A stretch of DNA of 64,000 nucleotides from Patescibacteria group bacterium (GTDB lineage Bacteria; Patescibacteriota; Minisyncoccia; GWC2-36-17; M10-OD1-4): positions 1,339 through 65,338 of the forward strand of contig JBBTYT010000001.1 in assembly GCA_038061695.1 (NCBI GenBank), in the 5' to 3' direction. Position numbers and translations under genes: made by a program. This document shows, piece after piece, positions 3,843 to 53,192 of the stretch. Each line of letters opens with the position of its first letter. Position 1 is the first letter of the stretch. The notes under the pieces were generated by a model. The model saw only the letters and a list, made by a program, of their open reading frames with translations. It ran no database searches and had not been told where the DNA came from.

Positions 3843-4922
3843 ATGAAACTAAACTTAAATTCAAAAATAGATTTTTTAAGTATTTTTCGTGAACATACAT
3901 TTTTAGGTGTTGATATAGGCACATCATCAATAAAAATAGTTCAGCTTACCAGGAGCGGATTAAAATATAAACTTGATACTTATGGTGAAATTCATTTTTT
4001 TTCAAAAAATGAGAATAAAGAATCAGGAGATTCATTAAAAATGTTGGATAATGATGTTGCCTTTTTATTAAAAAAGATAATATTAGAGTCTGGTGCAAAG
4101 GCAAAGAGAGTGGTTATGAGTGTTCCTATATTCTCATCTTTCTCAATCATTATAGATATGCCTGATTTACCAAGAAATGAATTGACAAAAGCTATAGAAT
4201 TCCAAGCTAGACAATATGTCCCGATTCCTGTTAATCAAGTTGTTTTGAGTTATAATATTATAGGAAGAAAAGAGAATGCATCCGGTAATAATATATTACA
4301 GATTCTTTTAGTGGCGATACCGAATGAAGTAAGAGATAAATATTTTAATATAGCAAATATAGCAGGTGTCAAACTTGTATCTTTGGAGGTGGAAACGCTT
4401 CCAATGGTGCGGTCTGTTCTTAAAAATCTTAAAGAGACAGTCATGATAATTGATTTGGGTTTAAAGTCTACTAATTTTTGTATAGTAGATAACGGTGTTG
4501 TGAGATTATCTCATAATTACGATATATCAGGCAGTTCTATAACGCAAGCATTTTTAGGTTTTTCAGGTGGAGATTATAAGAAGGCGGAAAGTCTTAAAAA
4601 AACGATGGGTTTAAATATGACGCCCGGACAAAAAGAGATGGCAAGAGATGTTTTTCATACTATAAATATTATTACAGCAGAAGCAGATAGAATTATGAGC
4701 AGTTATTTTAATAAGTCTAATGTTAGAATGGAAAAGATTATTTTAAGTGGAGGCTCTGCTAATATGTTTGGCCTCAAGGAATATTTTGCAGATAGATTAA
4801 ATTTAGAGGTCGTTGTTGTTGATCCATTTTCAGGTATTATCTATCCAAAAGAATTAGAGAATATTTTGAAAGATATAGGTCCATCTTTTGCTATTGCCTT
4901 AGGACTTGCGATGCGGAAATAG
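3843..4922 (+). CDS. pilM: Type IV pilus assembly protein PilM (actin-like ATPase)
   Basis: LGVDIGTSSIKIVQL phosphate-1 motif; about 360 aa; followed by pilN/pilO-like genes. Confidence 0.75.
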   Translation: MKLNLNSKIDFLSIFREHTFLGVDIGTSSIKIVQLTRSGLKYKLDTYGEIHFFSKNENKESGDSLKMLDNDVAFLLKKIILESGAKAKRVVMSVPIFSSFSIIIDMPDLPRNELTKAIEFQARQYVPIPVNQVVLSYNIIGRKENASGNNILQILLVAIPNEVRDKYFNIANIAGVKLVSLEVETLPMVRSVLKNLKETVMIIDLGLKSTNFCIVDNGVVRLSHNYDISGSSITQAFLGFSGGDYKKAESLKKTMGLNMTPGQKEMARDVFHTINIITAEADRIMSSYFNKSNVRMEKIILSGGSANMFGLKEYFADRLNLEVVVVDPFSGIIYPKELENILKDIGPSFAIALGLAMRK

Positions 4923-5026
4923 GTTTTAGGTGCTAGGAATTTTTTATTTTGAATATATATTGTTAATGTAGTATAATTAAAAAGTTAAAACATAAAAGCT
5001 AACAGCTATAACTTAAAACCTAAAAA

Positions 5027-23119: not shown

Positions 23120-25462
23120 ATGGCAAACGAAAGAAAAACCGAAATAATCACAAGAGATCACTTTTCCAATTTTTTGGATTCTATTTATATTGAAGAACAA
23201 CGCTCAGATAATCCAAAAATTGATAAGTTGTTAAAATCCGCCTCAAAAAAAGGCGGTGGAAAAGGTTATCCTGAATTTATCATTAGCTATAAAACCAATC
23301 CTGATTTATTGATTGTTGTTGAATGTAAAGCAGATGTAACCAAACATGAAAGCAAAGATCGTGATAAATATTCAGAATTTGCGGTTGATGGTGCTTTACT
23401 TTATGCCTCCTATCTCTCTAAGGGTTTTGATGTTTTGGCAATCGCAGTTAGTGGAGAAACAAAACAATCATTAAAAGTTTCTCACTTTTTGCATTTAAGA
23501 AATGAGAAAAAAGCGACCCCAATTTTCGGAGATAAATTTTTACCTGTTGATGATTATTTGAATGGATATTTGAAAAGTCCTGAAAAATTCAGACAAGACT
23601 ATATCTCCCTTTTGGATTTTACAAAACAGCTTAATGAAAAACTACATACCTATAAGATTCTTGAAAGTCAAAGAAGTTTGCTTATCAGCTCAATTTTAAT
23701 TGCTTTAGAAAATCCTGCATTTAAAAGATCGTATGCTTCGCACACTAGACCAGAAGACTTAGCTTCTTCTCTTATACAAACAGTTTTAAGTGAATTAGAA
23801 AAGGCAAATATTACTGGTAAAAAATTAGAAAATTTAAATACACAATTTAGTTTTATAAAAACTGACACTTCTTTATCAAAAAAAGAAAATATTTTGAAAG
23901 AAATTATTGACGAAATTGACGAAAATATAAATATTTTTATTAAAACTCACAAATATTTTGATGTATTAGGACAGCTCTATATTGAATTTTTGAGATACGC
24001 AAACAGCGATAAAGGTTTAGGAATTGTTTTAACACCTCCGCATATTACAGAACTTTTTGCAGATTTGGCACAAGTAAATAAAAACTCTATTGCCTACGAT
24101 AATTGTACTGGAACAGGCGGATTTTTGATTAGTGCAATGAAAAGAATGATCGCAGATGCAAAAGGTGATGAAACAAAAATTAAAGAAATAAAATCAAAAC
24201 AGCTTATTGGAACGGAATATCAATCACATATTTTCGCTTTGGCGGTTTCTAATATGTATATCCATCAAGATGGAAAAACGAATATCATAAATGGAAGCTG
24301 TTTTGATGAGGAAGTTATTGAAGAAGTTAAATCAAGAAAACCAACAGTTGGATTTTTAAACCCGCCTTACAAATCAAATAAAAAAACAGATACTGATGAA
24401 TTAGAATTTATACTAAACAACTTAGAGTGTTTAGTTGACGGAGGAACTTGTGTTGCGATTGTACCAATGAGTAGTGCTTTAGCGATGAAAGGGAAAACCT
24501 ACGAAATTAAAAAGGAATTATTAAAAAAGCATACATTAGAAGCAGTATTATCAATGCCTAATGATTTATTTATTGATTCTGATGTTGGTACAGTTACTTG
24601 TATTATGGTTTTCACTGCTCATAAACCACATTTTCAAGGAAAAAAAACATTTTTTGGATATTTTAAAAATGATGGATTTGAGAAAAGAAGAAAAGGAAGA
24701 ATTGAAATTAATTGTCAATGGAAAGATATAAAAAATGAATGGCTAAAGGCATATTTAAACAAAGCCAATATTCCTGATTTAAGTATTAATATAGAAGTAA
24801 CGGCAAATAATGAATGGTGCCCAGAAGCATACTTAATTACAGATTTTACAAAAATAAATAATAATAATTTTATTAAAAATCTAAAAGAACATTGTATTTA
24901 TTTGTTTAATAACGATCTATCAAAAAATATTTCCAATAATCCTTTGGTGCAAAAAGAAATAAATATAAATTTTCAAAATTGGCAAAGGTTCAAGGTTAAA
25001 GATTTCTTCAAGGTTTATTCTGGTGGTGATAAACCAAAATCAGATGATTCAAAACATTGGAATGGTGAGATTGTTAATTCAGTAGAAAATCAAACAACAA
25101 ACAATGGAATAAAAGAAAAAATAGAATTTGCCGATGAAAATAAGATTTTTGAAAATTTTATTTCAGTTGTTTCTATCGGAGAAGGAGGTAAGGCATTTTA
25201 TCAACCAGAAAAAGGCGCTTGTTTTACTCGTGTTAAAGTCCTTGTTCCAATTAAGCAATGCAAAAATAATTTTAATAAATATCTCTTTCTGTTTTTTTGC
25301 TCCTTACTTGATATGGAAAGATATAGATATGGCTATGGCAGAGTTCTTAGCAAAGATAGATTGGGAGAAACGGAGTTATTAATACCAACAAAGAACAATT
25401 TACCAGATTGGGAATTTATGGAAAATTATATTAAATCATTGCCCTATTCTTCAAGTCTCTAA
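23120..25462 (+). CDS. Single-polypeptide restriction-modification enzyme, Type IIG-like: N-terminal PD-ExK nuclease, gamma-class N6-adenine methyltransferase and a C-terminal specificity region
   Basis: NPDLLIVVECK is a PD-x5-ExK motif. MTase motif I DNCTGTGGFLISA and motif IV FLNPPYK. The C-terminal region resembles a target-recognition domain. 780 aa. Confidence 0.6.
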   Translation: MANERKTEIITRDHFSNFLDSIYIEEQRSDNPKIDKLLKSASKKGGGKGYPEFIISYKTNPDLLIVVECKADVTKHESKDRDKYSEFAVDGALLYASYLSKGFDVLAIAVSGETKQSLKVSHFLHLRNEKKATPIFGDKFLPVDDYLNGYLKSPEKFRQDYISLLDFTKQLNEKLHTYKILESQRSLLISSILIALENPAFKRSYASHTRPEDLASSLIQTVLSELEKANITGKKLENLNTQFSFIKTDTSLSKKENILKEIIDEIDENINIFIKTHKYFDVLGQLYIEFLRYANSDKGLGIVLTPPHITELFADLAQVNKNSIAYDNCTGTGGFLISAMKRMIADAKGDETKIKEIKSKQLIGTEYQSHIFALAVSNMYIHQDGKTNIINGSCFDEEVIEEVKSRKPTVGFLNPPYKSNKKTDTDELEFILNNLECLVDGGTCVAIVPMSSALAMKGKTYEIKKELLKKHTLEAVLSMPNDLFIDSDVGTVTCIMVFTAHKPHFQGKKTFFGYFKNDGFEKRRKGRIEINCQWKDIKNEWLKAYLNKANIPDLSINIEVTANNEWCPEAYLITDFTKINNNNFIKNLKEHCIYLFNNDLSKNISNNPLVQKEININFQNWQRFKVKDFFKVYSGGDKPKSDDSKHWNGEIVNSVENQTTNNGIKEKIEFADENKIFENFISVVSIGEGGKAFYQPEKGACFTRVKVLVPIKQCKNNFNKYLFLFFCSLLDMERYRYGYGRVLSKDRLGETELLIPTKNNLPDWEFMENYIKSLPYSSSL

Positions 25463-25525
25463 ATATAACTCCTTGTAGATCAAAATAAAAACTCCCTGAA
25501 AAGCTGACGGGAAAAGCTCGATCAA

Positions 25526-25711
25526 CTAATTTGTGGAATCCACGATATCATCCGAGTAAGCAATCTGCTTTACACGAAGAGCAGAGTTAATAGCGGCTTG
25601 TTTTGAGGAATAACCCTCACTAGCAGCGACCTTCTCGCCGTTTAAAGCTTGAAGGTACCACCGATAATAACCGGCACGATTTTTGTAAATCACAAATCTT
25701 GGTTTTGCCAT
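25526..25711 (-). CDS. YegP-like (DUF1508/UPF0339) single-domain protein
   Basis: FVIYKNRAGYYRWYLQALNGEKVAASEGYSSKQAAINSALRVK matches the DUF1508 consensus (F.iyKd..GeyRwrLka.NGeiia.SegYsska.a...i.sVk). Codons are more G+C-rich than flanking host genes. Confidence 0.65.
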   Translation of the reverse strand: MAKPRFVIYKNRAGYYRWYLQALNGEKVAASEGYSSKQAAINSALRVKQIAYSDDIVDSTN

Positions 25712-26053
25712 AGATTTAATCCATTACTTTTTGTTAATTAATAGAGAGTCGACCTTTACGCTTACTCCCCACCCCAAAAACTAAAAGTTCCTAGGGAGGA
25801 GAGGTAAAGGCGACTTGATCTAATAACCACGAAAAGGTCCCTGAGGTATCCCGCCAGCTTTTCAAGGAGCTAATAATTACAATTTACGCTTTTTGAATTA
25901 TGGAGTCAAGATTAAGATATAAAATAATCCACCTCATTTTTACCCCTATTAGACTCTGGACGAGGCGTTTCAAACCATTCAGGATGAACTTTGTACATTA
26001 CCCTTAATTCGCTATACTTTTATCAATATCTTCGAATTTGAGCCACTTTCTAG

Positions 26054-26100
26054 GTTCAAAGTTCCGGAGATCGGCCCAGCCATATTTTTAAGTTTGAACC
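26054..26100 (+). repeat. Degenerate direct repeat of the tRNA-Asp 3' end plus downstream flank (putative attR of an integrated element)
   Basis: GGTTCAAAGTTCCGGAGATCGGCCCAGCCATATTTTTAAGTTTGAACC versus tRNA-Asp 22971-23013 GGTTCAAATCCGGTCGGCCCCGCCAGATTTCTAAGTTTGAACC. About 40 of 43 positions align with two small indels, including 12 identical terminal bases TAAGTTTGAACC. Confidence 0.6.
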
Positions 26101-26302
26101 GTAATGATTACAAGACTTAATGAAAGGAAGTTTTTTGAGCTTTCAGTGATGTATTCTCAACATAACAGAGCACGGATTGGTCGCGCTTTTTATTGCGACC
26201 ATTGACTTTTGCTTTAATAAATACTATTATGTTAAGTCATGATTCGGCATGTTGTTGGTCAGGTGGTCTGTTCATTCAAAACAAAATAAGGAGTGTGTTA
26301 TT

Positions 26303-26680
26303 ATGGTAAAGAAAATTTTGGTGCTGTTTCGAGATAAATTTTTTCACTGGAGGATATCTGATATGCTTAGACAAAATTATGGTCAATATACCTCAATAGA
26401 GAATGGAATTTGTTCTTTTCTTTACAACTCAAAAAACGCGTTGGATATCGTAGAAAGATTTAAAAAAGGAGGCTATGACTATCTGGTGATTATGGGTTCG
26501 TTCCAGATGAGTGATGTGTTCTGTAAAAATGGTATCAGAGTGTTGTGGCCGGAATGGGTCAAGGAAGATGATCATTCTAAAATTGAGTTTTATGATATGC
26601 ACGCCAGGCAAGGTTACCGGCTCGTTCGGTTTCGTCAGATTAAGAGTTTCACTAATGATACTCTAGAATTTGAGGATTGA
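26303..26680 (+). CDS. Hypothetical protein (island gene)
   Basis: Start chosen at the internal ATG with SD TAAGGAG 8 nt upstream (track ORF begins 26249). TTGACT-N17-TATTAT promoter-like site at about 26197-26225, preceded by a TGGTCGC/GCGACCA inverted repeat. Confidence 0.45.
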   Translation: MVKKILVLFRDKFFHWRISDMLRQNYGQYTSIENGICSFLYNSKNALDIVERFKKGGYDYLVIMGSFQMSDVFCKNGIRVLWPEWVKEDDHSKIEFYDMHARQGYRLVRFRQIKSFTNDTLEFED

Positions 26681-26767
26681 TTCATTTGGTGTTTCGGCAC
26701 CTTCACAGAATGGATATGATCGCCGAAACGATCGTGTCAGTAATGCATAAAATGAAAGGAGATCAAG

Positions 26768-27127
26768 ATGGAATACGATGAAGTCCTCAAACTGGCAATG
26801 AAGCTCGGAAAGGAGCGTCATCCGGAAGCTCCTCAACACCATCACGCGGCCTTTGTCAACTCAGTGCAGACTCTTGTTACTGGTTGGAGTGGAGGCTTCG
26901 GCGGTCCGTCCATGCGTGAGCACTGGGCGTGCCGAGTTGCCAAAGCCAAGGACACAGTCGGACAGTTCAGCTTCGACGATGCGGTGACGGCGGTTGAGGA
27001 AGCCTGTTACGGCCAACTCACCCTCGATCACGCGAACATGCTCGAAGAGGAGCACTGCTTCGATGATGCTCCTGGTGAAGTGGAGACGGCACAGTGGCTT
27101 CTGGCGATGCACCATCAGCACGATTGA
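26768..27127 (+). CDS. Hypothetical protein, conspicuously G+C-rich foreign ORF
   Basis: SD AAAGGAG upstream; His/Glu-rich product. Followed by hairpin terminator GGCACGTTTT-CCCA-AAAACGTGCC plus T-run (27154-27188). Overlapping minus ORF 26861-27193 and plus ORF 26994-27221 rejected. Confidence 0.5.
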   Translation: MEYDEVLKLAMKLGKERHPEAPQHHHAAFVNSVQTLVTGWSGGFGGPSMREHWACRVAKAKDTVGQFSFDDAVTAVEEACYGQLTLDHANMLEEEHCFDDAPGEVETAQWLLAMHHQHD

Positions 27128-27339
27128 ATTGAAGTGTGCGATAATGGGTTTCTGGCACGTTTTCCCAAAAAACGTGCCTTTTCTTTTATCCATTTTTGGC
27201 TATTTGACCGCCTTTATGTAATAATATACAATGGAAAGGTGAAAATATCACCTTTTCATTAAACATATTGATATTGCTACACTCGGAACAGGAGCGATAG
27301 TGTCTTCTGGTAAGTGCGAATTTAGAAAATAGTTTCTCT

Positions 27340-28761
27340 ATGAAAAAGATCGTCTTTTATTCTTGGCAGTCAGATTTACCTAACGGTACAAATCGTAATC
27401 TTATCGAAGGTGTTTTAAAGGATGTTGCCAAAGAAATAGGAAGTGATGAAGATACTAATATCGAGCATGTTATCGACAGGGATACTCAAGGTGTAGCCGG
27501 TGCGCCGAATATTGCAACAGCTATTTTCCAAAAAATTGATTCGGCAGATATTTTTGTCGCTGATGTATCAATAATTGGAAGTGCGAAAAAACGCGCAGTA
27601 CCTAATCCAAATGTTTTAATTGAATTAGGATATGCTCTTAAATCTTTAGGACACGAACGTATTATATTGGTTTTTAATACTGCGTTTGGAAAAATTGAAA
27701 AATTACCATTTGATCTAAGAATGCATAGAACTCTTACTTACCAATGTGCTGAGTCGGTTACAGATCGCACAGAAATAAAGAAAGGTTTAATTAGAGATTT
27801 CAGATTAGCTCTTTTAGCGGGATTTTCTCATGTAACTCCTAAAAAAGTCACAACACCTATAATTGATATCATCAAAAATAGAACGGCGAGTAAAAAAATT
27901 GACCTCAGGGCATATTTAGATGAATTATATAATGAATTGTGGAAATTACAGCCACCTATGAAAAGAGATGGCGGTACTGTACAAGATTTGTTATCTGCTC
28001 TACCAAAAACCGAAAAAATATCTGCCAAATTTGCAAAACTTTCACAGACCATCGTTTTAATGAACGATAAAGAATCATCAAGAGAAGTATTTCAATGGTT
28101 CGGTAAGTTGTTAACGAATTACGATCCAATACTAAAAGGCGATGGTAAAATATGGAACTGTGATGGAGATTTTTTTAAATTTATAGGGCATGATCTTTTT
28201 GTAAATTTTATAAATCCTTTTCTGCGAGAAGAAAAATGGGATGAAATAAAAGAACTTTTAAAAGGAATTTTATCAGTTGGGCCAACATCGTATAGCCAAA
28301 ACGATCGAAAGGAATCTTGGACAGAGTTATCCAAACATTCTCCGCTTTTAATAGATGAAGGGAAAACTAATCGCCGTGTATCTTTCCATGCCGATTTATT
28401 AAAAACCAGACACGAAAAAGGTGAATTAGCTTCCATCGTACCTTTTAAGGAATTTACTGAAACAGATTTTTTTCTCCATTTATATGGCGAAGGGATAACA
28501 CAAGATAACAAATATTACGGTAAATGGTATCCGAGAAGTGATATCTGGCTTCAGCATACTCCAAAATTTATATCTGAAGCTACTGATTATCCAACCGCCA
28601 TGAAGATATGCAATGCTCTACAAATAAGTGATGTCGAAGAATTTAAAAGACGGCTGGCACATACACAAATTAAATGGGATTGGCATTCCCCAGTTAGCGC
28701 AGCAGATATTAATAAAATTGGGAGTACTGGTGGTGCTGTTATTATTAAAATAGATGAATAA
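27340..28761 (+). CDS. TIR-like (ThsB/DUF1863-like, nucleoside 2-deoxyribosyltransferase fold) N-terminal domain fused to a roughly 300-aa C-terminal domain of unknown function; candidate anti-phage defense protein
   Basis: N-terminus KIVFYSWQSD parallels the ThsB-type RVFFSFHYQD start. ADIFVADVS and NPNVLIELGYALKSLGHERIILVFN carry the conserved Glu of the TIR/NDT superfamily. No motif recognised in residues about 170-473. Promoter-like TTGACC-N17-TACAAT at about 27195-27225. Confidence 0.5.
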   Translation: MKKIVFYSWQSDLPNGTNRNLIEGVLKDVAKEIGSDEDTNIEHVIDRDTQGVAGAPNIATAIFQKIDSADIFVADVSIIGSAKKRAVPNPNVLIELGYALKSLGHERIILVFNTAFGKIEKLPFDLRMHRTLTYQCAESVTDRTEIKKGLIRDFRLALLAGFSHVTPKKVTTPIIDIIKNRTASKKIDLRAYLDELYNELWKLQPPMKRDGGTVQDLLSALPKTEKISAKFAKLSQTIVLMNDKESSREVFQWFGKLLTNYDPILKGDGKIWNCDGDFFKFIGHDLFVNFINPFLREEKWDEIKELLKGILSVGPTSYSQNDRKESWTELSKHSPLLIDEGKTNRRVSFHADLLKTRHEKGELASIVPFKEFTETDFFLHLYGEGITQDNKYYGKWYPRSDIWLQHTPKFISEATDYPTAMKICNALQISDVEEFKRRLAHTQIKWDWHSPVSAADINKIGSTGGAVIIKIDE

Positions 28762-47193: not shown

Positions 47194-49083
47194 ATGAAAA
47201 GAAATATATTTAAAGTAATATTTATTCTTCCTTTGTTTGTGTTTGCAATTTCTTTTTTTGCAAATGCGCAGAATCCATTCGATATTGAATTTCCTATTAA
47301 AGAGCTTGGAAGTTGCTCTTCTATAAGCGAATGTAAGTCTTATTGTGATCAAGCTGATAATGCTATAGCGTGTATGAGTTTCGCTGAGAAAAACGGAATT
47401 GTTAAAAAGCAAGAAGATAGGTCTAGTAGAGCGGACGAAGTTCTAAAAGATAGAGCTGGTCCAGGCGGATGCGTTGGCAGAGTAGCTTGCGATGCTTTTT
47501 GTAGTGAGCCAGAAAATAGAGAAATCTGTTTCTCTTTTGCAAAAGAGAATGGTTTAATATCAAAAGATAAGATAGAAAAGATTGAAAAAGAGATGGAATC
47601 AAATAGTGGTCCAGGTGGTTGTAGTTCGCGTCAGCAGTGTGATACTTTTTGTAAAAATCCTGATAATATTCAAATTTGTTTAGATTTTGCCGTAAGCAAT
47701 GGGCATATTGATCAAGAAGAAGCGAGTCTTTTAATTGAAAGGATGAGCAGAGGTAAAGATTTCAGAATAAATAATCAAGGGTCACGAGGTGAATTTAAGG
47801 GTGAAGTGGTAGGCTTGGAGGTAGGCTTGGAGCCTGAGATAGATAAGAAAAAAGCTGAGGAGGTTTTAGCTAAAAATGGCGGACCAGGCGGATGTTTGAC
47901 CATGCTGGAATGTGAAGCTTTTTGCAGTAATGCTGACAATGGGAATATATGTCTTGATTTTGCAATTTCAAATAACTTAATACCAAAAGAGAAAGCAGAG
48001 AAGATGAAAGAGATGATGAATAAATCCGGACCAGGCGGATGTAAGGGAATTGAGTGTAAGGTCTATTGCGAGAATCCTGAAAATGCAGAGGCTTGTTTTA
48101 ATTTTGCAAAAGAGAATGGTTTGTTACATAAAGATGATATAAGACAGTTTGAGAGAGGAAAGGATATTATAAAGAGAATTGAGGGGCGAGGAGGTCCAGG
48201 AGATTGTAGGAGTGAGAAGGAGTGTAGAGCATATTGCCAAGATTCAGTAAATATTGATGAATGTGCTGCTTTCTCTGTTAGTGTGGGATTTATAGATGAA
48301 GATGAAGTTAAAAAATCTTTTGAAGAATTTGAATCTATTAAAGATATGCGAAATAATTTTTCTAATCAGGACTTTCAGGGGGATATGCAAAATCGTCTTA
48401 TAAGAGAAGGTAATTTTACCGGTCAGGGAAAAATGCAAGGAGATTTTAATCCTGAAGGTATGATGCAACAAGGCTTTGATAGGTTTGAAAAGTTTAGAGA
48501 TGAGTTTAAAAAGCATGAAGATTTTTGTTTAAAGCCAGAAAATTCTGAATCATGTAAAAAATTTGAACAGCCTAATATTAATCAAAATGAGTTTACGCCA
48601 AATGATAGAGCACTTGAAATGATGAGATACAAAGAGAATCAAAAAGATATGCCAAGGGATAATACAAATCAAGATCAATTAGATCGCAAAGATTTTAATC
48701 CTCAGAACGATGATGCTAGGAAATTTATACCTAGAGATGATCAGAGAATGGGCGATTTTAATTCTCAAGGTATCCCAAGTGGTCAAATGCCTGGAGCACC
48801 AGAAGGATTTAAACAACCAGAAGGTTTTGTTCCACCTGCAGGCTTTGACCCATCTCAGATGCCAAGAGACTTTAATCTTCAAGGTATTCCAAGTGGTCAA
48901 ATACCTATCGGATCGGAAGGATTTACTCCTCCGGCAGGCTTTGATCCATCTCAGATGCAAAGCGGATCAGAAAGTTTTAAATATCCGGAAGGATTTGTTC
49001 CTCAAATAATTCCACAGTCAATGAATAGATCAATAAATATACTTGCGAATCCACTTGATTTATTGTTTAATCTCTTAAAATAA
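47194..49083 (+). CDS. Secreted protein with six tandem Cys-rich repeats (GPGGC-x5-C-x3-C-x8-C...ENG(L/I)I) and a C-terminal Q/P/G/F-rich tandem repeat region
   Basis: Signal peptide. Repeats AGPGGCVGRVACDAFCSEPENREICFSFAKENGLI, SGPGGCSSRQQCDTFCKNPDNIQICLDFAVSNGHI and four similar copies. C-terminal GIPSGQ(M/I)P...PPAGFDPSQM repeated twice. ORFs 48244-48516, 48679-48960 and 48710-49009 are repeat-induced artifacts. Confidence 0.6.
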   Translation: MKRNIFKVIFILPLFVFAISFFANAQNPFDIEFPIKELGSCSSISECKSYCDQADNAIACMSFAEKNGIVKKQEDRSSRADEVLKDRAGPGGCVGRVACDAFCSEPENREICFSFAKENGLISKDKIEKIEKEMESNSGPGGCSSRQQCDTFCKNPDNIQICLDFAVSNGHIDQEEASLLIERMSRGKDFRINNQGSRGEFKGEVVGLEVGLEPEIDKKKAEEVLAKNGGPGGCLTMLECEAFCSNADNGNICLDFAISNNLIPKEKAEKMKEMMNKSGPGGCKGIECKVYCENPENAEACFNFAKENGLLHKDDIRQFERGKDIIKRIEGRGGPGDCRSEKECRAYCQDSVNIDECAAFSVSVGFIDEDEVKKSFEEFESIKDMRNNFSNQDFQGDMQNRLIREGNFTGQGKMQGDFNPEGMMQQGFDRFEKFRDEFKKHEDFCLKPENSESCKKFEQPNINQNEFTPNDRALEMMRYKENQKDMPRDNTNQDQLDRKDFNPQNDDARKFIPRDDQRMGDFNSQGIPSGQMPGAPEGFKQPEGFVPPAGFDPSQMPRDFNLQGIPSGQIPIGSEGFTPPAGFDPSQMQSGSESFKYPEGFVPQIIPQSMNRSINILANPLDLLFNLLK

Positions 49084-49085
49084 AT

Positions 49086-49931
49086 ATGTATCTTTTGTTT
49101 GATATAGGTGGAACCAAGACAAGAATTGCTTTCTCTGAAGATGGAAAAACATTTGAAGATCCAGAAATATTTTTAACACCTGAAAATTTTGAAGAAGGAA
49201 TAGATCTTATAAAAAGCAAAGCAAAAAAAGTTATAGGAGGAAGAAATCTTATTGCTTTGGCTGGCGGGATAGCTGGTTCTTTGAGTAAAGATAAGAAGGA
49301 GATATTAATTTTGCCAAATATTCCGAAATGGCAAGGAAAACCGATAGTCAGTAGATTAAGTAATGCTTTTAACCTTCCTATTTTTTTGGAAAATGACGCC
49401 GCTTTAGTTGCTCTCGGTGAGGCTATTTACGGTTCTGGTAAGGGAAATAAAGTAGTAGCATATATAACTTTAAGTACTGGGGTAGGTGGGGCGAGAATAG
49501 TTGACGGTAAGATAGATGTAAATTCTTTTGGTTTTGAGCCAGGACATCAAATTATTGATTTTGAAGAAGCATATTGTTCTTCTTGTGGCACTAAAGGTGA
49601 GCTAACTGATTATGTTAGTGGTAAGAGCTTAGAAAACAGACTACATAAGAAACCTCAGGATGTAAAAGATGAAAAAGTTTGGGACGAGCTTGCGAGAATT
49701 CTTGCTTATGGAATAAATAACGTTATTGTATTTTGGTCTCCTGATGTTGTTATTCTTGGTGGAAGTATGATGAACGAATCTAGTATATCTATAGAAAAGG
49801 TACGATCTTATTTGAAGGGTATATTAACTATATTTCCTAAATATTCAGATATTAAATCAGCTTCTTTGGGGGATGTTGGTGGTTTATACGGAGCTCTGGT
49901 ATTGGCAAATTCTAAAAAAGATGAATACTAA
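49086..49931 (+). CDS. ROK-family sugar kinase (glucokinase-like)
   Basis: LLFDIGGTKTRIAF ATP-binding start; ROK zinc motif CSSCGTKGELTDY; 281 aa. Confidence 0.7.
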   Translation: MYLLFDIGGTKTRIAFSEDGKTFEDPEIFLTPENFEEGIDLIKSKAKKVIGGRNLIALAGGIAGSLSKDKKEILILPNIPKWQGKPIVSRLSNAFNLPIFLENDAALVALGEAIYGSGKGNKVVAYITLSTGVGGARIVDGKIDVNSFGFEPGHQIIDFEEAYCSSCGTKGELTDYVSGKSLENRLHKKPQDVKDEKVWDELARILAYGINNVIVFWSPDVVILGGSMMNESSISIEKVRSYLKGILTIFPKYSDIKSASLGDVGGLYGALVLANSKKDEY

Positions 49932-51336
49932 GAAAACAAGAATTATAGCTACGATTGGTCCAGCATCTCAAAATGAAAAAGTGCTGACTAAAATGATAAA
50001 GTCAGGAGTGAACTTAGTTAGACTTAATTTCTCTCATGGAGATCATAAAATTCATGAGAGGACGGTTCAACTTATAAGAGAGATATCTAAGAAATTAAAA
50101 ATTTCTGTTTCTATAATTCAGGATTTATCTGGACCAAAGATAAGAATAGGGGATTTTTATAAAGATAGAGTTAATTTAAAAACCGGATCCATCTTTACAT
50201 TAAGCACTAAGCTGTGTATCGGTGATGAAAGTGTTGTATTTGTAAATTACAAAAATTTACCAAGAGAGGTTAAAAGTGGAAGCATGCTACTTCTTGATGA
50301 TGGTAAAAAGAAACTCTGTGTTATCTCTGTTTTAAAGAGTGAAATAAAATGCAGAGTAGTTGTTGGTGGAGAGATGAAAAACAGGAGGGGTGTAAATATT
50401 CCGGGAGCATATTTAAAGATCAGCTGTCTTACAGAAAAAGATAAAAAAGATATAGCTTTTGGCATTAAATATGATGTTGATTTTTTTGCTTTGTCTTTTG
50501 TAAGAAAGCCGTCAGATATTTTAGAGTTAAGATATATTTTAAATCAAGAGAAATCAGAAGCTGGTATAATTGCAAAAATTGAAACAGAGGAGGCTATAGA
50601 AAATTTAGATGCGATTATAGATGTAACAGATGCTGTTATGGTGGCAAGAGGTGATCTTGCTGTTGAGATGCCACCTGAGGATGTGCCTACATTACAGAAA
50701 ATTATTGTTAAAAAATGCAATAAGTCTGGCAAGCCAGTCATAGTAGCTACGCAGATGCTTGAGTCTATGATAAAATGTCCTGTCCCAACAAGGGCTGAAG
50801 TAAGCGATATTGCAAATTCTATACTTGATGGCGCTGATGCGCTGATGCTTTCTGAAGAGACGGCACTCGGAGATTATCCAGTTGAAGTGATAAATATAAT
50901 GGCGAGCGTTGCTATAAAGACAGAATTAAATTATCCTAAAAAAGAGATTCAAGTAGTAGATGAGCAATATAAAAAAGGTATCGTTGATTCTATAACAGAG
51001 TCAATTGTAAAAACAGCAAACGACATTGATGCGAAGATTATCATAGCTTTAACAGAGTCGGGATTTACGCCAAGAATGATATCAAGATATAAGCCGACAC
51101 AAAAGATAGTTGTTTTGACTCCAAATCAAAAAACAGCAAACAAAATAATGTTGAGTTTTGGGTGTTATCCTTTTATCATAAAACCATTTCAAGATATTAT
51201 TCAAGTAAGCGATTATGTGAGTTCATTTGTTATTAAAAATAAATATGCAAAAAAAGGTGATAGGATAGTTATCGCCGCAGGCATTCCATTCGGACAAGTA
51301 GGCGGAACTAATACTATAATGGTTCAGGAAATTTGA
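49921..51336 (+). CDS. pyk: Pyruvate kinase
   Basis: MNTKKTRIIATIGPAS...NFSHG, MVARGDLAVE. Start set at the ATG overlapping the ROK stop by 11 nt (the track ORF begins 49873). Confidence 0.85.
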   Translation: MNTKKTRIIATIGPASQNEKVLTKMIKSGVNLVRLNFSHGDHKIHERTVQLIREISKKLKISVSIIQDLSGPKIRIGDFYKDRVNLKTGSIFTLSTKLCIGDESVVFVNYKNLPREVKSGSMLLLDDGKKKLCVISVLKSEIKCRVVVGGEMKNRRGVNIPGAYLKISCLTEKDKKDIAFGIKYDVDFFALSFVRKPSDILELRYILNQEKSEAGIIAKIETEEAIENLDAIIDVTDAVMVARGDLAVEMPPEDVPTLQKIIVKKCNKSGKPVIVATQMLESMIKCPVPTRAEVSDIANSILDGADALMLSEETALGDYPVEVINIMASVAIKTELNYPKKEIQVVDEQYKKGIVDSITESIVKTANDIDAKIIIALTESGFTPRMISRYKPTQKIVVLTPNQKTANKIMLSFGCYPFIIKPFQDIIQVSDYVSSFVIKNKYAKKGDRIVIAAGIPFGQVGGTNTIMVQEI

Positions 51337-51356: not shown

Positions 51357-51788
51357 ATGGTTTCCACAACCGAGATTGAAAATTTTAATAAAAATTTTGA
51401 TGTTGTTTCTGTTTTTATTGAGCATAATGAAGAGATATTGCTTTTACATCGTCAGGATCATAAACCGCAAGGTAATACATGGGCTAATGTGGCAGGCAAG
51501 GTGAATGGCGGTGAGAATTTACTTGATGCTTTGATCAGAGAAGTTGAAGAAGAGATCGGTTTAAAAATAAAAAAAGAAAATTATACATACTTCAAGAAAT
51601 ATTATGTTAGATATCCGGGGTATGATTTTTTATATCATATTTACCATCTGCTTTTGGAAGAGAGGCCAATTTTGAATTTAAACTTAGAAGAAAGCAAAGA
51701 TTATAAATGGATAAAGCCGCAAGATGCTTTGAAGCTTGATTTAATTCAAGATGAGGATATTTCTATCAAGCAATTTTATAATATTTAA
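51357..51788 (+). CDS. NUDIX hydrolase
   Basis: Nudix box GKVNGGENLLDALIREVEEEIGL. Confidence 0.75.
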   Translation: MVSTTEIENFNKNFDVVSVFIEHNEEILLLHRQDHKPQGNTWANVAGKVNGGENLLDALIREVEEEIGLKIKKENYTYFKKYYVRYPGYDFLYHIYHLLLEERPILNLNLEESKDYKWIKPQDALKLDLIQDEDISIKQFYNI

Positions 51789-51808
51789 TCAGTTATATTA
51801 CTAATTAT

Positions 51809-52276
51809 ATGTCTAATGCCTGTGACCATAAAAGTGTCGGAATGATTCTTTACAAAGATGAAAAAATTCTATTAATTGAAAGAGCCAAATATCCTTTTGG
51901 CTTTGCCATTCCAGCTGGTCATGTCGATGATGACAAAACTTATGAAGAATCTGCCCAGCGTGAATTAAAAGAAGAGGTTGGGCTAGGAACAAAAGAATTA
52001 AAATTAATTATAGAGGGGAGAAAAGAAAATAAATGCAGGAGAGATGGCGGTTCATGGCATTTTTGGAAGATATATCAAATAATTTCAATTGGAGAAATAG
52101 ATAGAAGTAAAGACGAAACGAAGCAAGTCGGCTGGTATACTAAAGATCAAATAAGAGTTCTTGGAAATAAAGCTGAAAAGTATAATAATAAAGAAATTTC
52201 TGAGGAAGAGTGGAATAAGAATCCTGGGCTGGAACCCGTGATATATGAATGGTTTAAGGAATTAAAAATAATTTAA
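51809..52276 (+). CDS. NUDIX hydrolase (second, divergent copy)
   Basis: Nudix box AGHVDDDKTYEESAQRELKEEVGL. Confidence 0.75.
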   Translation: MSNACDHKSVGMILYKDEKILLIERAKYPFGFAIPAGHVDDDKTYEESAQRELKEEVGLGTKELKLIIEGRKENKCRRDGGSWHFWKIYQIISIGEIDRSKDETKQVGWYTKDQIRVLGNKAEKYNNKEISEEEWNKNPGLEPVIYEWFKELKII

Positions 52277-52281
52277 AGAAA

Positions 52282-52746
52282 ATGAAAAAAGTTACTAAAA
52301 TAAAAAAGAAAAAGAGAGAGGTTGTTATTTGTTCAAGCGCCGCTTTTTATAAAAATATGTTGGATGTTGAGGATGAGCTTAAGAGATTAGGATTTAAAGT
52401 AATCATCCCTCTTACTGCAAGTGCAATGAAAAAGAACGGTGATTTTAGCGTGGAAAGATATAAAACTTGGCATAAAAATTCGGATGATTATAAAAGAAAA
52501 ACTTTTTTAACGAAACATCACTTTAATAAAATTGTGAAAGGAGATGTTATTCTCGTATTGAATTATGAAAAAAATGGAATTATTGGATATATTGGCGGGG
52601 CAGTTTTATCTGAGATGGCAATCGCCCTTCATCATGGCAAGAAAATTTACATGCTTAATCCAGTACCAGAATCTCTATCTTACAAAGAAGAGCTTTATGG
52701 AATGATGCCGATTGTCATCAATGGCGATTTAAATTTAATCCGTTAA
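52282..52746 (+). CDS. Nucleoside 2-deoxyribosyltransferase-like protein
   Basis: VVICSSAAFY N-terminal strand and GGAVLSEMAIALHHGKKIYML, matching the NDT-family catalytic-Glu region. Confidence 0.45.
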   Translation: MKKVTKIKKKKREVVICSSAAFYKNMLDVEDELKRLGFKVIIPLTASAMKKNGDFSVERYKTWHKNSDDYKRKTFLTKHHFNKIVKGDVILVLNYEKNGIIGYIGGAVLSEMAIALHHGKKIYMLNPVPESLSYKEELYGMMPIVINGDLNLIR

Positions 52747-52765
52747 TAAAAAAGGTTTCAAATAT

Positions 52766-53101
52766 ATGACTTTAGAAATATTTCAAAAATTTATCGATGA
52801 ACAGGATGCTCTTTTTCGCGCGGTGAAAGATTCTAATAAAACTGATCGTGAACGTGTTTTTGCTCGTGTGATTAAATTAGGGGAAGAGTACGGGGAGTTA
52901 TGTGATGAAGTGCTTGCTTCAGTCGGAGATCAAAGAAAGGACAAATTAGATGAGAAGCATGATTTGGAGGGTGAGTTTGCTGATGTGGTTATCGTTGCTT
53001 TCATGCTCGCAAAAGCTATGAATATAGATATGAAAAAAGCGTTAATAAATAAGATGCAAAAAATTAAGGATAAACATAATAAACAAATAGGGGTTAAGTA
53101 A
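52766..53101 (+). CDS. MazG-like nucleotide pyrophosphohydrolase (single domain)
   Basis: EEYGELCDEVL and EFADVVIVAFMLAKAMNIDM (EExxE/D metal-binding helices); 111 aa. Confidence 0.65.
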   Translation: MTLEIFQKFIDEQDALFRAVKDSNKTDRERVFARVIKLGEEYGELCDEVLASVGDQRKDKLDEKHDLEGEFADVVIVAFMLAKAMNIDMKKALINKMQKIKDKHNKQIGVK

Positions 53102-53192
53102 AATTTATATAATCGAAATTGTGTTTCAAGTTGAATTTTTCAATTTTTCTGATATACTGATTTTATATTAAAATTTAACTTATTTATCTTAT

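Follow-up and report, generated by a model that had tools for sequence, protein, structure and literature searches.

A possible nucleotide disposal module of Nudix hydrolases, a MazG-like pyrophosphohydrolase and a predicted nucleotide N-glycosidase in a Patescibacteria group bacterium

House-cleaning of the nucleotide pool is usually described as a single step from nucleoside triphosphate (NTP) to monophosphate (NMP), and the later fate of a non-canonical NMP is known in few cases, among them human DNPH1 and phage DmtZ. Enzymes of the Nudix, Maf, MazG and YjjX types convert NTPs, often non-canonical ones, to NMP and pyrophosphate. DNPH1, also named Rcl, is a 2'-deoxynucleoside 5'-phosphate N-hydrolase, and MilB, BcmB and BlsM are N-glycosidases of CMP and hydroxymethyl-CMP. 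The release of NMP and pyrophosphate was reported for Maf (PMC3899018) and MazG (PMC10014863), with a preference of Maf enzymes for modified NTPs (PMC3899018). Human DNPH1 has been described as sanitising the nucleotide pool by cleavage of hmdUMP (PMC10603095). MilB and BcmB belong to antibiotic biosynthesis, keep Asp78 and bind the phosphate by Arg23, Ser97 and Gly99 (PMC4081090). DmtZ is a dAMP N-glycosidase of the family of nucleoside 2-deoxyribosyltransferases (NDT), and its gene adjoins or is fused to that of the dATP/dGTP pyrophosphatase DutZ (PMC12884076). Here we analyze a block of four small genes in a DNA stretch of 64,000 nucleotides from a Patescibacteria group bacterium (GCA_038061695.1, contig JBBTYT010000001.1, positions 1,339 to 65,338 of the forward strand; the whole stretch is called the window, and positions refer to it). 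The chances appear about even to us that these genes form a module for nucleotide disposal and recycling around the second Nudix hydrolase, Nudix2, and ORF3, a predicted (deoxy)nucleoside monophosphate ((d)NMP) N-glycosidase. While the sequence of pyrophosphatase and NMP N-glycosidase is already known as a principle, the ORF3 family, its breadth and its altered catalytic set are new.

As claimed in an earlier note on this DNA, four consecutive small genes fill positions 51357-53101. Their open reading frames (ORFs; 143, 155, 154 and 111 amino acids) are all on the + strand, with intergenic gaps of 20, 5 and 19 nt:

51357..51788, + strand: Nudix1, Nudix hydrolase of 143 amino acids, MutT/NudG-like, with a canonical Nudix box at residues 47-69
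51809..52276, + strand: Nudix2, Nudix hydrolase of 155 amino acids with Lys at the Gx5E position and the C-terminal clade-specific motif PGLEPVIYEWFKELKII
52282..52746, + strand: ORF3, 154 amino acids, unannotated family of the NDT superfamily, predicted (d)NMP N-glycosidase
52766..53101, + strand: MazG, 111 amino acids, YpjD-type NTP pyrophosphohydrolase with a single all-alpha domain

The sequence of ORF3 is that of an NCBI 'hypothetical protein' from a 'Patescibacteria group bacterium', which makes the host a CPR bacterium. ORF3 gave no significant match in Pfam, NCBIfam, PHROG, PADLOC or the PDB sequences. Its structure model is confident (pLDDT 92.4) and exhibits a flavodoxin-like alpha/beta fold with a parallel sheet that can be superposed on NDT, DNPH1 and MilB; NDT-family enzymes ranked above every TIR in three of three fold searches. 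A family profile of 85 diverse representatives aligned to the PF05014 protein L053:7041-7463, which itself scores 40 bits on PF05014, with 90.6% probability and an E-value of 1.3e-6 (hhalign), placing E111 of ORF3 on the Glu of 'QTEIG' and H80 on the helix Asp. By the confident model, two fold searches and this profile-profile alignment, the NDT-like fold proposed in the earlier note and its reading of SEMAIALHHGKKIYML as the catalytic-Glu region are supported. In the weak hhalign alignment to human DNPH1 (E 0.045), E111 falls on E104 and H80 on D80; the numbering of the DNPH1 sequence used reproduces Y24, C26, I29, E55, H56, I76, D80 and E104 of PMC10603095. The window protein has no PF05014 match at the gathering threshold of 28.8 bits, and distant family members reach only 17.8-27.7 bits on PF05014 with their ORF3-type domain. 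ORF3 belongs to a new, unannotated family inside the NDT superfamily and is not a canonical NDT or DNPH1. No curated family model covers this family, and a literature search found no paper describing it or its linkage to NTP pyrophosphatases.

In total, an exhaustive profile search returned 1,266 clusters at 50% identity, 765 of them at E<=1e-10. The best 120 of 363 word-indexed homologues are 59-76% identical to ORF3, and a 'hypothetical protein' occurring at such identity across many Paceibacteria hereby gains a concrete, testable function proposal. Several other identities were discarded. Matches to diphthamide synthase in Pfam and NCBIfam (E ~0.005, far below the cut-off) are spurious, and the 'DPH2' labels that some ORF3 homologues carry at JGI arise from this similarity. 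Methylmalonyl-CoA mutase and synaptotagmin were chance matches only, obtained with phmmer for ORF3 and profile hmmsearch against the PDB sequences.

In the NDT superfamily the nucleophile is a Glu (E98 in LlNDT, E104 in DNPH1, E103 in MilB), and a general-acid Asp is located on the preceding long helix (D80 in DNPH1, D78 in MilB). The predicted nucleophile of ORF3, E111, likewise starts the helix after beta4 and is conserved in 84 of the 85 representatives. Further candidate active-site residues are C17, S19, H80, N94, K97, Y103, G105, K120 and E137. Across the same representatives N94, G105 and E137 are invariant, and conservation reaches 90% or more at C17, S19, K97, Y103, E111, A115 and K120. 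Position 80 is occupied by His in 61/85 and by Tyr in 12/85, with Asp not among the six commonest residues. The 5'-phosphate pocket of DNPH1 uses two Ser; in ORF3, S19 (84/85), K97 (84/85), G105 (85/85) and N107 (67/85) are candidates for such a pocket. Position 15 is V in ORF3 and T, V or A family-wide. It is matched with the Tyr of the catalytic triad (Y24 in DNPH1), which ends beta1, by eye only (Y-F-C-G-S in DNPH1, V15-I-C17-S-S19 in ORF3), since neither hhalign alignment spans beta1. The role of E104 in DNPH1 was described earlier (PMC10603095). The ribo-specific MilB has Phe17 at the triad-Tyr position, and its variant F17Y is reported to have the specificity reversed from CMP to dCMP (PMC4081090). 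By analogy with this precedent, the small residue at position 15 of ORF3 would be compatible with ribonucleotide substrates.

A connection of ORF3 with NTP pyrophosphatases is seen in domain fusions. Twenty of the best 150 family representatives, all longer than a single ORF3 domain, were scanned, and 13 of these 20 carry an NTP pyrophosphatase domain (NTPase_I-T of the YjjX family in 6, Nudix in 4, MazG in 2, Maf in 1). The Nudix domain is N-terminal in P0132, P0206 and P0246 and C-terminal in P0228; MazG is present in P0125 and P0194. Canonical NDT domains are fused in three representatives, among them P0125 with its additional MazG, and GNAT, DUF7768 and GntR in one each. Since the fused representatives are more than 50% different from one another, a single assembly artefact cannot account for all of them. 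An extra Nudix2-ORF3 fusion in a single ORF occurs in the genome assembly of locus L052; an apparent homology of ORF3 and Nudix proteins, suggested by a merged single-linkage cluster, was traced to this real fusion ORF and rejected. Because the fusion partners are classic house-cleaning NTP pyrophosphatases, sanitation or catabolism is favoured over signalling among the roles considered in the earlier note, which were nucleotide-pool sanitation, salvage and the degradation of modified or signalling nucleotides.

Some longer proteins were observed besides. The GNAT acetyltransferase fused to the ORF3 domain in P0129 does not fit a scheme of pyrophosphatase followed by glycosidase, and at locus L073 a GNAT gene (4356-4952) lies directly 5' of ORF3, with a YjjX-type NTPase one gene farther 5'. 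The long ORFs L055:5746-6936, L082:4719-5909 and L036:559-1380 consist of an ORF3-family domain with extra sequence, and the one in L055 looks like an ORF3-YjjX-type fusion.

Gene neighbourhoods were compared at 68 loci on one-genome-per-species contigs with crude ORF calls, mostly from Patescibacteria lineages and DPANN archaea. At 29 of them a Nudix, MazG, Maf or YjjX gene adjoins or is fused to the ORF3 family (Nudix in 23; YjjX genes were counted with a non-iterated profile), whereas 5,000 shuffles of the gene labels within loci gave 7.6 on average and never more than 17. The adjoining Nudix genes lie upstream on the same strand in 15 cases, downstream in 5 and on the opposite strand in 2. 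Nudix2 orthologues (>200 bits) directly adjoin ORF3 homologues in L004, L006, L008, L021, L026 and L074, and more distant orthologues adjoin them in L010, L015 and L025, with a single fused one in L052. In the closer relatives and in L052 ORF3 is paired with Nudix2; elsewhere several different Nudix subfamilies fill this position. In the reciprocal test with nine metagenome loci of Nudix2 orthologues, six had an adjacent ORF3-family gene, one had it at a distance of about 1.2 kb and one lacked it, while one locus was not assessable. Nudix2 and ORF3 are therefore a recurrent, functionally linked pair. The four-gene order, in contrast, was found only in contigs carrying the identical ORF3 protein; the relatives of 73-76% identity (L073, L074 and L075) are arranged differently. 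As the link of ORF3 to NTP pyrophosphatases recurs and the whole block does not, the idea of a dedicated nucleotide module, put forward in the earlier note together with a check of synteny in relatives, holds for part of the block only: it stands for the Nudix2-ORF3 pair, adjacent in many lineages, and for the ORF3-pyrophosphatase links, and fails for the block as a whole and for Nudix1.

MazG or MazG-like genes occur at most two genes away from an ORF3 homologue in L013, L019, L041 and L060, and MazG is not kept at its window position in relatives. Other recurrent neighbours are CYTH, UDG, canonical NDT and MazG-like genes; a YfbR-like 5'-deoxynucleotidase is also found nearby, two genes from ORF3 in L075. 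CYTH, UDG, NDT and YfbR-like proteins act on nucleotides or on uracil in DNA. A tandem, old paralogue of ORF3, 27-38% identical to the window copy, is present in L004-L007, L009, L011, L016, L020, L021 and L027 and as L074:4079-4522, where the order is ORF3-paralogue-Nudix2-ORF3; the window has a single copy. As enzymes of the NDT fold form dimers that share active sites, heterodimers of ORF3 and its paralogue are conceivable. A family of 170-178 amino acids (cluster c8), for which no Pfam match was obtained, lies near ORF3 genes in the Paceibacteria-like loci L005 (6822-7343), L006 and L007. In both L005 and L006 its gene directly follows the two ORF3 genes, standing in L005 between them and a family-4-like UDG, and in L007 it is found three genes upstream.

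The two Nudix proteins were assigned by the box Gx5Ex7REUxEExGU and a PF00293 score above the cut-off. As the earlier note had stated, they carry two divergent boxes: Nudix1 reaches 67.1 bits with the full box G47KVNGGENLLDALIREVEEEIGL, Nudix2 61.3 bits with G37HVDDDKTYEESAQRELKEEVGL, in which REx2EE is intact and the Glu of Gx5E is replaced by Lys, and the two show no cross-match at E<=0.01. NudG is a pyrimidine (d)NTP diphosphatase; it is the best NCBIfam match of Nudix1 (55.3 bits, sub-threshold against a cut-off of 156), whereas that of Nudix2 is NudE (32.3 bits, cut-off 169). Since neither protein attains any NCBIfam equivalog cut-off, their subfamily functions stay generic and their substrates cannot be named. 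The closest solved relatives of Nudix1 are MutT (4v14) and the CTP pyrophosphohydrolase NudG (2rrk). Nudix1-type genes showed no preferential adjacency to ORF3 homologues in the genome loci; Nudix1 is a lineage-specific addition without a conserved partnership with ORF3. In the Nudix2 clade (window, L004, L006, L008, L021 and L026) the first Glu of the box is exchanged for K, S or A, and the distant orthologues in L015, L025 and L052 retain GH[VI]DEGE. To judge from the motif, a Glu three residues further on (TFE or TYE) may compensate for this loss. The orthologues can be identified by the C-terminal motif PGLEPV.YEWFKELKII.

MazG exceeds the PF03819 cut-off (27.1 versus 22 bits), and its ExxE...ExxD metal-binding motifs can be read from the sequence as E41xxE44 and E70xxD73. 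The best solved relatives, 5ie9 (E 3.3e-6) and 2gta (E 6.1e-5), are of the YpjD type. From the description as MazG/HisE-like in the earlier note only the MazG part survives, as the match to HisE (PRA-PH) stayed sub-threshold (16.9 versus 21.3 bits) and this identity was rejected. MazG has no PADLOC match. By their motifs, Nudix1, Nudix2 and MazG are members of the superfamilies of house-cleaning NTP pyrophosphatases, with the catalytic motifs present except for the Gx5E Glu of Nudix2.

The window has a GC content of about 0.33 and is coding almost wholly on the + strand; no other Nudix, MazG or ORF3-like genes are present in the rest of its 64 kb. The block is preceded by genes for a ROK kinase and pyruvate kinase and, farther 5', for 6-phosphogluconate dehydrogenase, 6-phosphogluconolactonase and PGI; on its 3' side come frr and genes for an M50 protease of the RseP type and for a Fic protein. 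One promoter-like site was noted upstream:

51291..51320, + strand: weak candidate promoter of the four-gene unit, CGGACA-18-TATAAT with 10/12 matches, located in the 3'-terminal part of the pyruvate kinase gene

The next promoter-like site (53131-53158, extended -10 TG) lies 5' of frr, and a consensus scan gave no terminator-like site on the + strand between 51357 and 53101. The region contains 36 promoter-like sites compared to 27.7 expected from shuffles, and single sites are unreliable in an AT-rich genome.

Taken from its first ATG, the pyruvate kinase ORF shares 59 nt (49873-49931) with the ROK kinase gene; translation probably begins at the downstream Met of MNTKKTRIIATIGP. At 47194-49083 a protein of 629 amino acids, for which no Pfam match was found, combines a signal-peptide-like N-terminus, about seven Cys-rich repeats 'GPGGC...C..FC..P.N...C..FA..NG' and a Gln/Pro/Asn-rich tail. 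A possible foreign or defence island extends over 23120-28761. It includes a protein of 780 amino acids in which an N6-methylase and a type I specificity domain are fused (23120-25462), the GC content rises to 0.396 at 26-28 kb, and a protein of 473 amino acids (27340-28761) has a sub-threshold match to the CAP12/Pycsar-effector TIR family (PF10137, 21.1 versus 24.7 bits). This match was all that was found for the supposed recurrence of the NDT-like fold in the TIR-like protein at 27340, and the claim is weak.

For the proposed module the following course of events is suggested. Judging from family membership and intact motifs, Nudix2, joined in this genome by Nudix1 and the YpjD-like MazG, would act on (d)NTPs that are non-canonical, damaged, modified or in surplus and release (d)NMP and pyrophosphate from them. 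In a second step, deduced from the observed fold, conserved nucleophile, fusions and neighbourhood, Glu111 would attack C1' of the (d)NMP to give a covalent (deoxy)ribosyl-5-phosphate-enzyme, and His80, located where NDT, DNPH1 and MilB have their general-acid Asp, would be the likely donor protonating the leaving base. Water would finally free (deoxy)ribose-5-phosphate; we infer both this hydrolytic outcome and the class of substrates. As the NMP is destroyed and cannot be re-phosphorylated, removal would be irreversible. More speculatively, the sugar phosphate could enter the pentose-phosphate or glycolytic metabolism, whose genes lie directly upstream, with the base salvaged or discarded.

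Several observations weigh against such a joint, glycosidase-centred function. ORF3 lacks the general-acid Asp of NDT, DNPH1 and MilB, both alignments placing His80 there, and apparently also the triad Tyr, so that with positions 80 and 15 altered its chemistry or substrate could differ from those of the known glycosidases. The alignment to DNPH1 is weak, and sequence profiles alone do not connect ORF3 to solved NDT structures. No adjacent NTP pyrophosphatase is found at 39 of the 68 loci, which were retrieved by patterns favouring close relatives and whose counts are not phylogenetically independent, and the four-gene block is not conserved even in relatives of 73-76% identity. The scan for promoters and terminators hardly exceeds background and cannot delimit an operon, and since nearly all genes of the region are on the + strand, co-orientation says little. 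A rival explanation assumes no joint function, so that four independent housekeeping enzymes would stand side by side by chance in a compact genome coded largely on a single strand, ORF3 being perhaps a non-catalytic nucleotide-binding protein. The exact gene order missing from the closest relatives, Nudix1 and MazG not being conserved neighbours and the weak operon signals all agree with it. It is hard to reconcile with independent Nudix-ORF3 fusions in both domain orders and NTP pyrophosphatase domains in 13 of 20 longer representatives, or with an adjacency far above the shuffled expectation that is also reciprocal; further, near-invariant E111, N94, K97, G105 and E137 at about 38% mean identity argue for catalysis. 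For Nudix1, and to some degree for MazG, coincidence describes the situation in this genome adequately; for the block as a whole we regard it as improbable.

ORF3 might also be a transferase, either a classical nucleoside 2-deoxyribosyltransferase that exchanges bases between deoxynucleosides or a phospho(deoxy)ribosyltransferase that swaps bases on (d)NMPs, with phosphodeoxyribosyl transfer as in DmtZ; it would then serve salvage in an organism lacking de novo synthesis, and Nudix and MazG enzymes would deliver the NMPs used as donors. Hydrolase and transferase outcomes are indistinguishable from sequence, but of the catalytic triad of NDT, ORF3 is without the Asp and seemingly also without the Tyr, and the link to four NMP-producing enzyme classes points to nucleotide rather than nucleoside-only substrates. 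Overall, a transferase seems unlikely to us. A TIR/SLOG-like enzyme for NAD+/ADP-ribose processing or signalling, for example an NMN or NAD glycohydrolase accompanied by Nudix cleavage of NAD or ADP-ribose derivatives in defence or signalling, is very improbable. Besides the ranking of NDT-family enzymes above every TIR, ORF3 is without a PADLOC match, the context is one of housekeeping (pyruvate kinase, frr and rseP; in relatives UDG, alaS and mnmA), and the enzymes fused to it (Maf, MazG and YjjX-type NTPase) use NTPs, not NAD. Viral contigs gave no ORF3 relatives, a weak negative from a scan that detects close relatives only. A reading of the block as a defence system was rejected on the housekeeping context and the absence of PADLOC matches.

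Provided that the disposal module with ORF3 as N-glycosidase is correct, the linkage by adjacency and repeated independent fusions points towards a widespread second step of house-cleaning, with irreversible clean-up and recovery of the sugar phosphate. Limited metabolic capacities were reported for Patescibacteria and DPANN (PMC5113843). If these organisms rely on scavenged breakdown products of nucleic acids, they would import modified nucleotides and be exposed to foreign modified bases; the module would suit such a lifestyle and could be a core adaptation. A more far-reaching proposal, possible but on balance doubtful, is that ORF3 founds an unrecognised family with Glu/His instead of Glu/Asp/Tyr that cleaves or base-swaps modified ribonucleoside monophosphates. 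Its 1,266 clusters would provide a universal second step after all major house-cleaning NTP pyrophosphatases, as a pathway for quality control and ribose recovery specific to ultra-small symbionts living on scavenged nucleic acids; the retrieved loci are mostly from Patescibacteria and DPANN. As the NDT family serves as biocatalyst in the synthesis of nucleoside analogues (PMC7308715), an NDT variant whose catalytic set deviates may be of practical use.

In comparison with known proteins, YtoQ of Bacillus subtilis (PDB 8of6) matches the fold of ORF3 and adds fold information only; a literature search found no functional characterisation of it. Nudix1, Nudix2 and MazG share superfamilies with the house-cleaning NTP pyrophosphatases (MutT/Nudix, MazG/YpjD, Maf and YjjX/ITPase), although the Nudix2 clade differs by the lost first Glu of the Nudix box and none of the three attains an equivalog cut-off. 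From the nucleoside 2-deoxyribosyltransferases (PF05014; Lactobacillus NDT/PDT) ORF3 is set apart by the missing PF05014 match, the exchange of Asp for His and a linkage that points to phosphorylated substrates. MilB, BcmB and BlsM differ from it in that ORF3 has His80, another loop and both housekeeping and house-cleaning contexts. Compared to DNPH1, whose sequence similarity is insignificant, ORF3 has His80 in place of the general acid D80, a small residue, V, T or A, in what seems to be the place of Y24 in DNPH1, and an insertion of a hairpin of about six residues with the near-invariant K97 before the catalytic helix. In the DmtZ-DutZ pair of Z-genome phages the partner is dUTPase-like and not Nudix, MazG, Maf or YjjX as with ORF3, and the system is viral and serves dATP exclusion and dZTP synthesis, whereas close relatives of ORF3 were not found in viral contigs. 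Its genetic logic, leading from NTP to NMP and on to base and sugar phosphate, is the same as that of the Nudix2-ORF3 pair and the ORF3 fusions.

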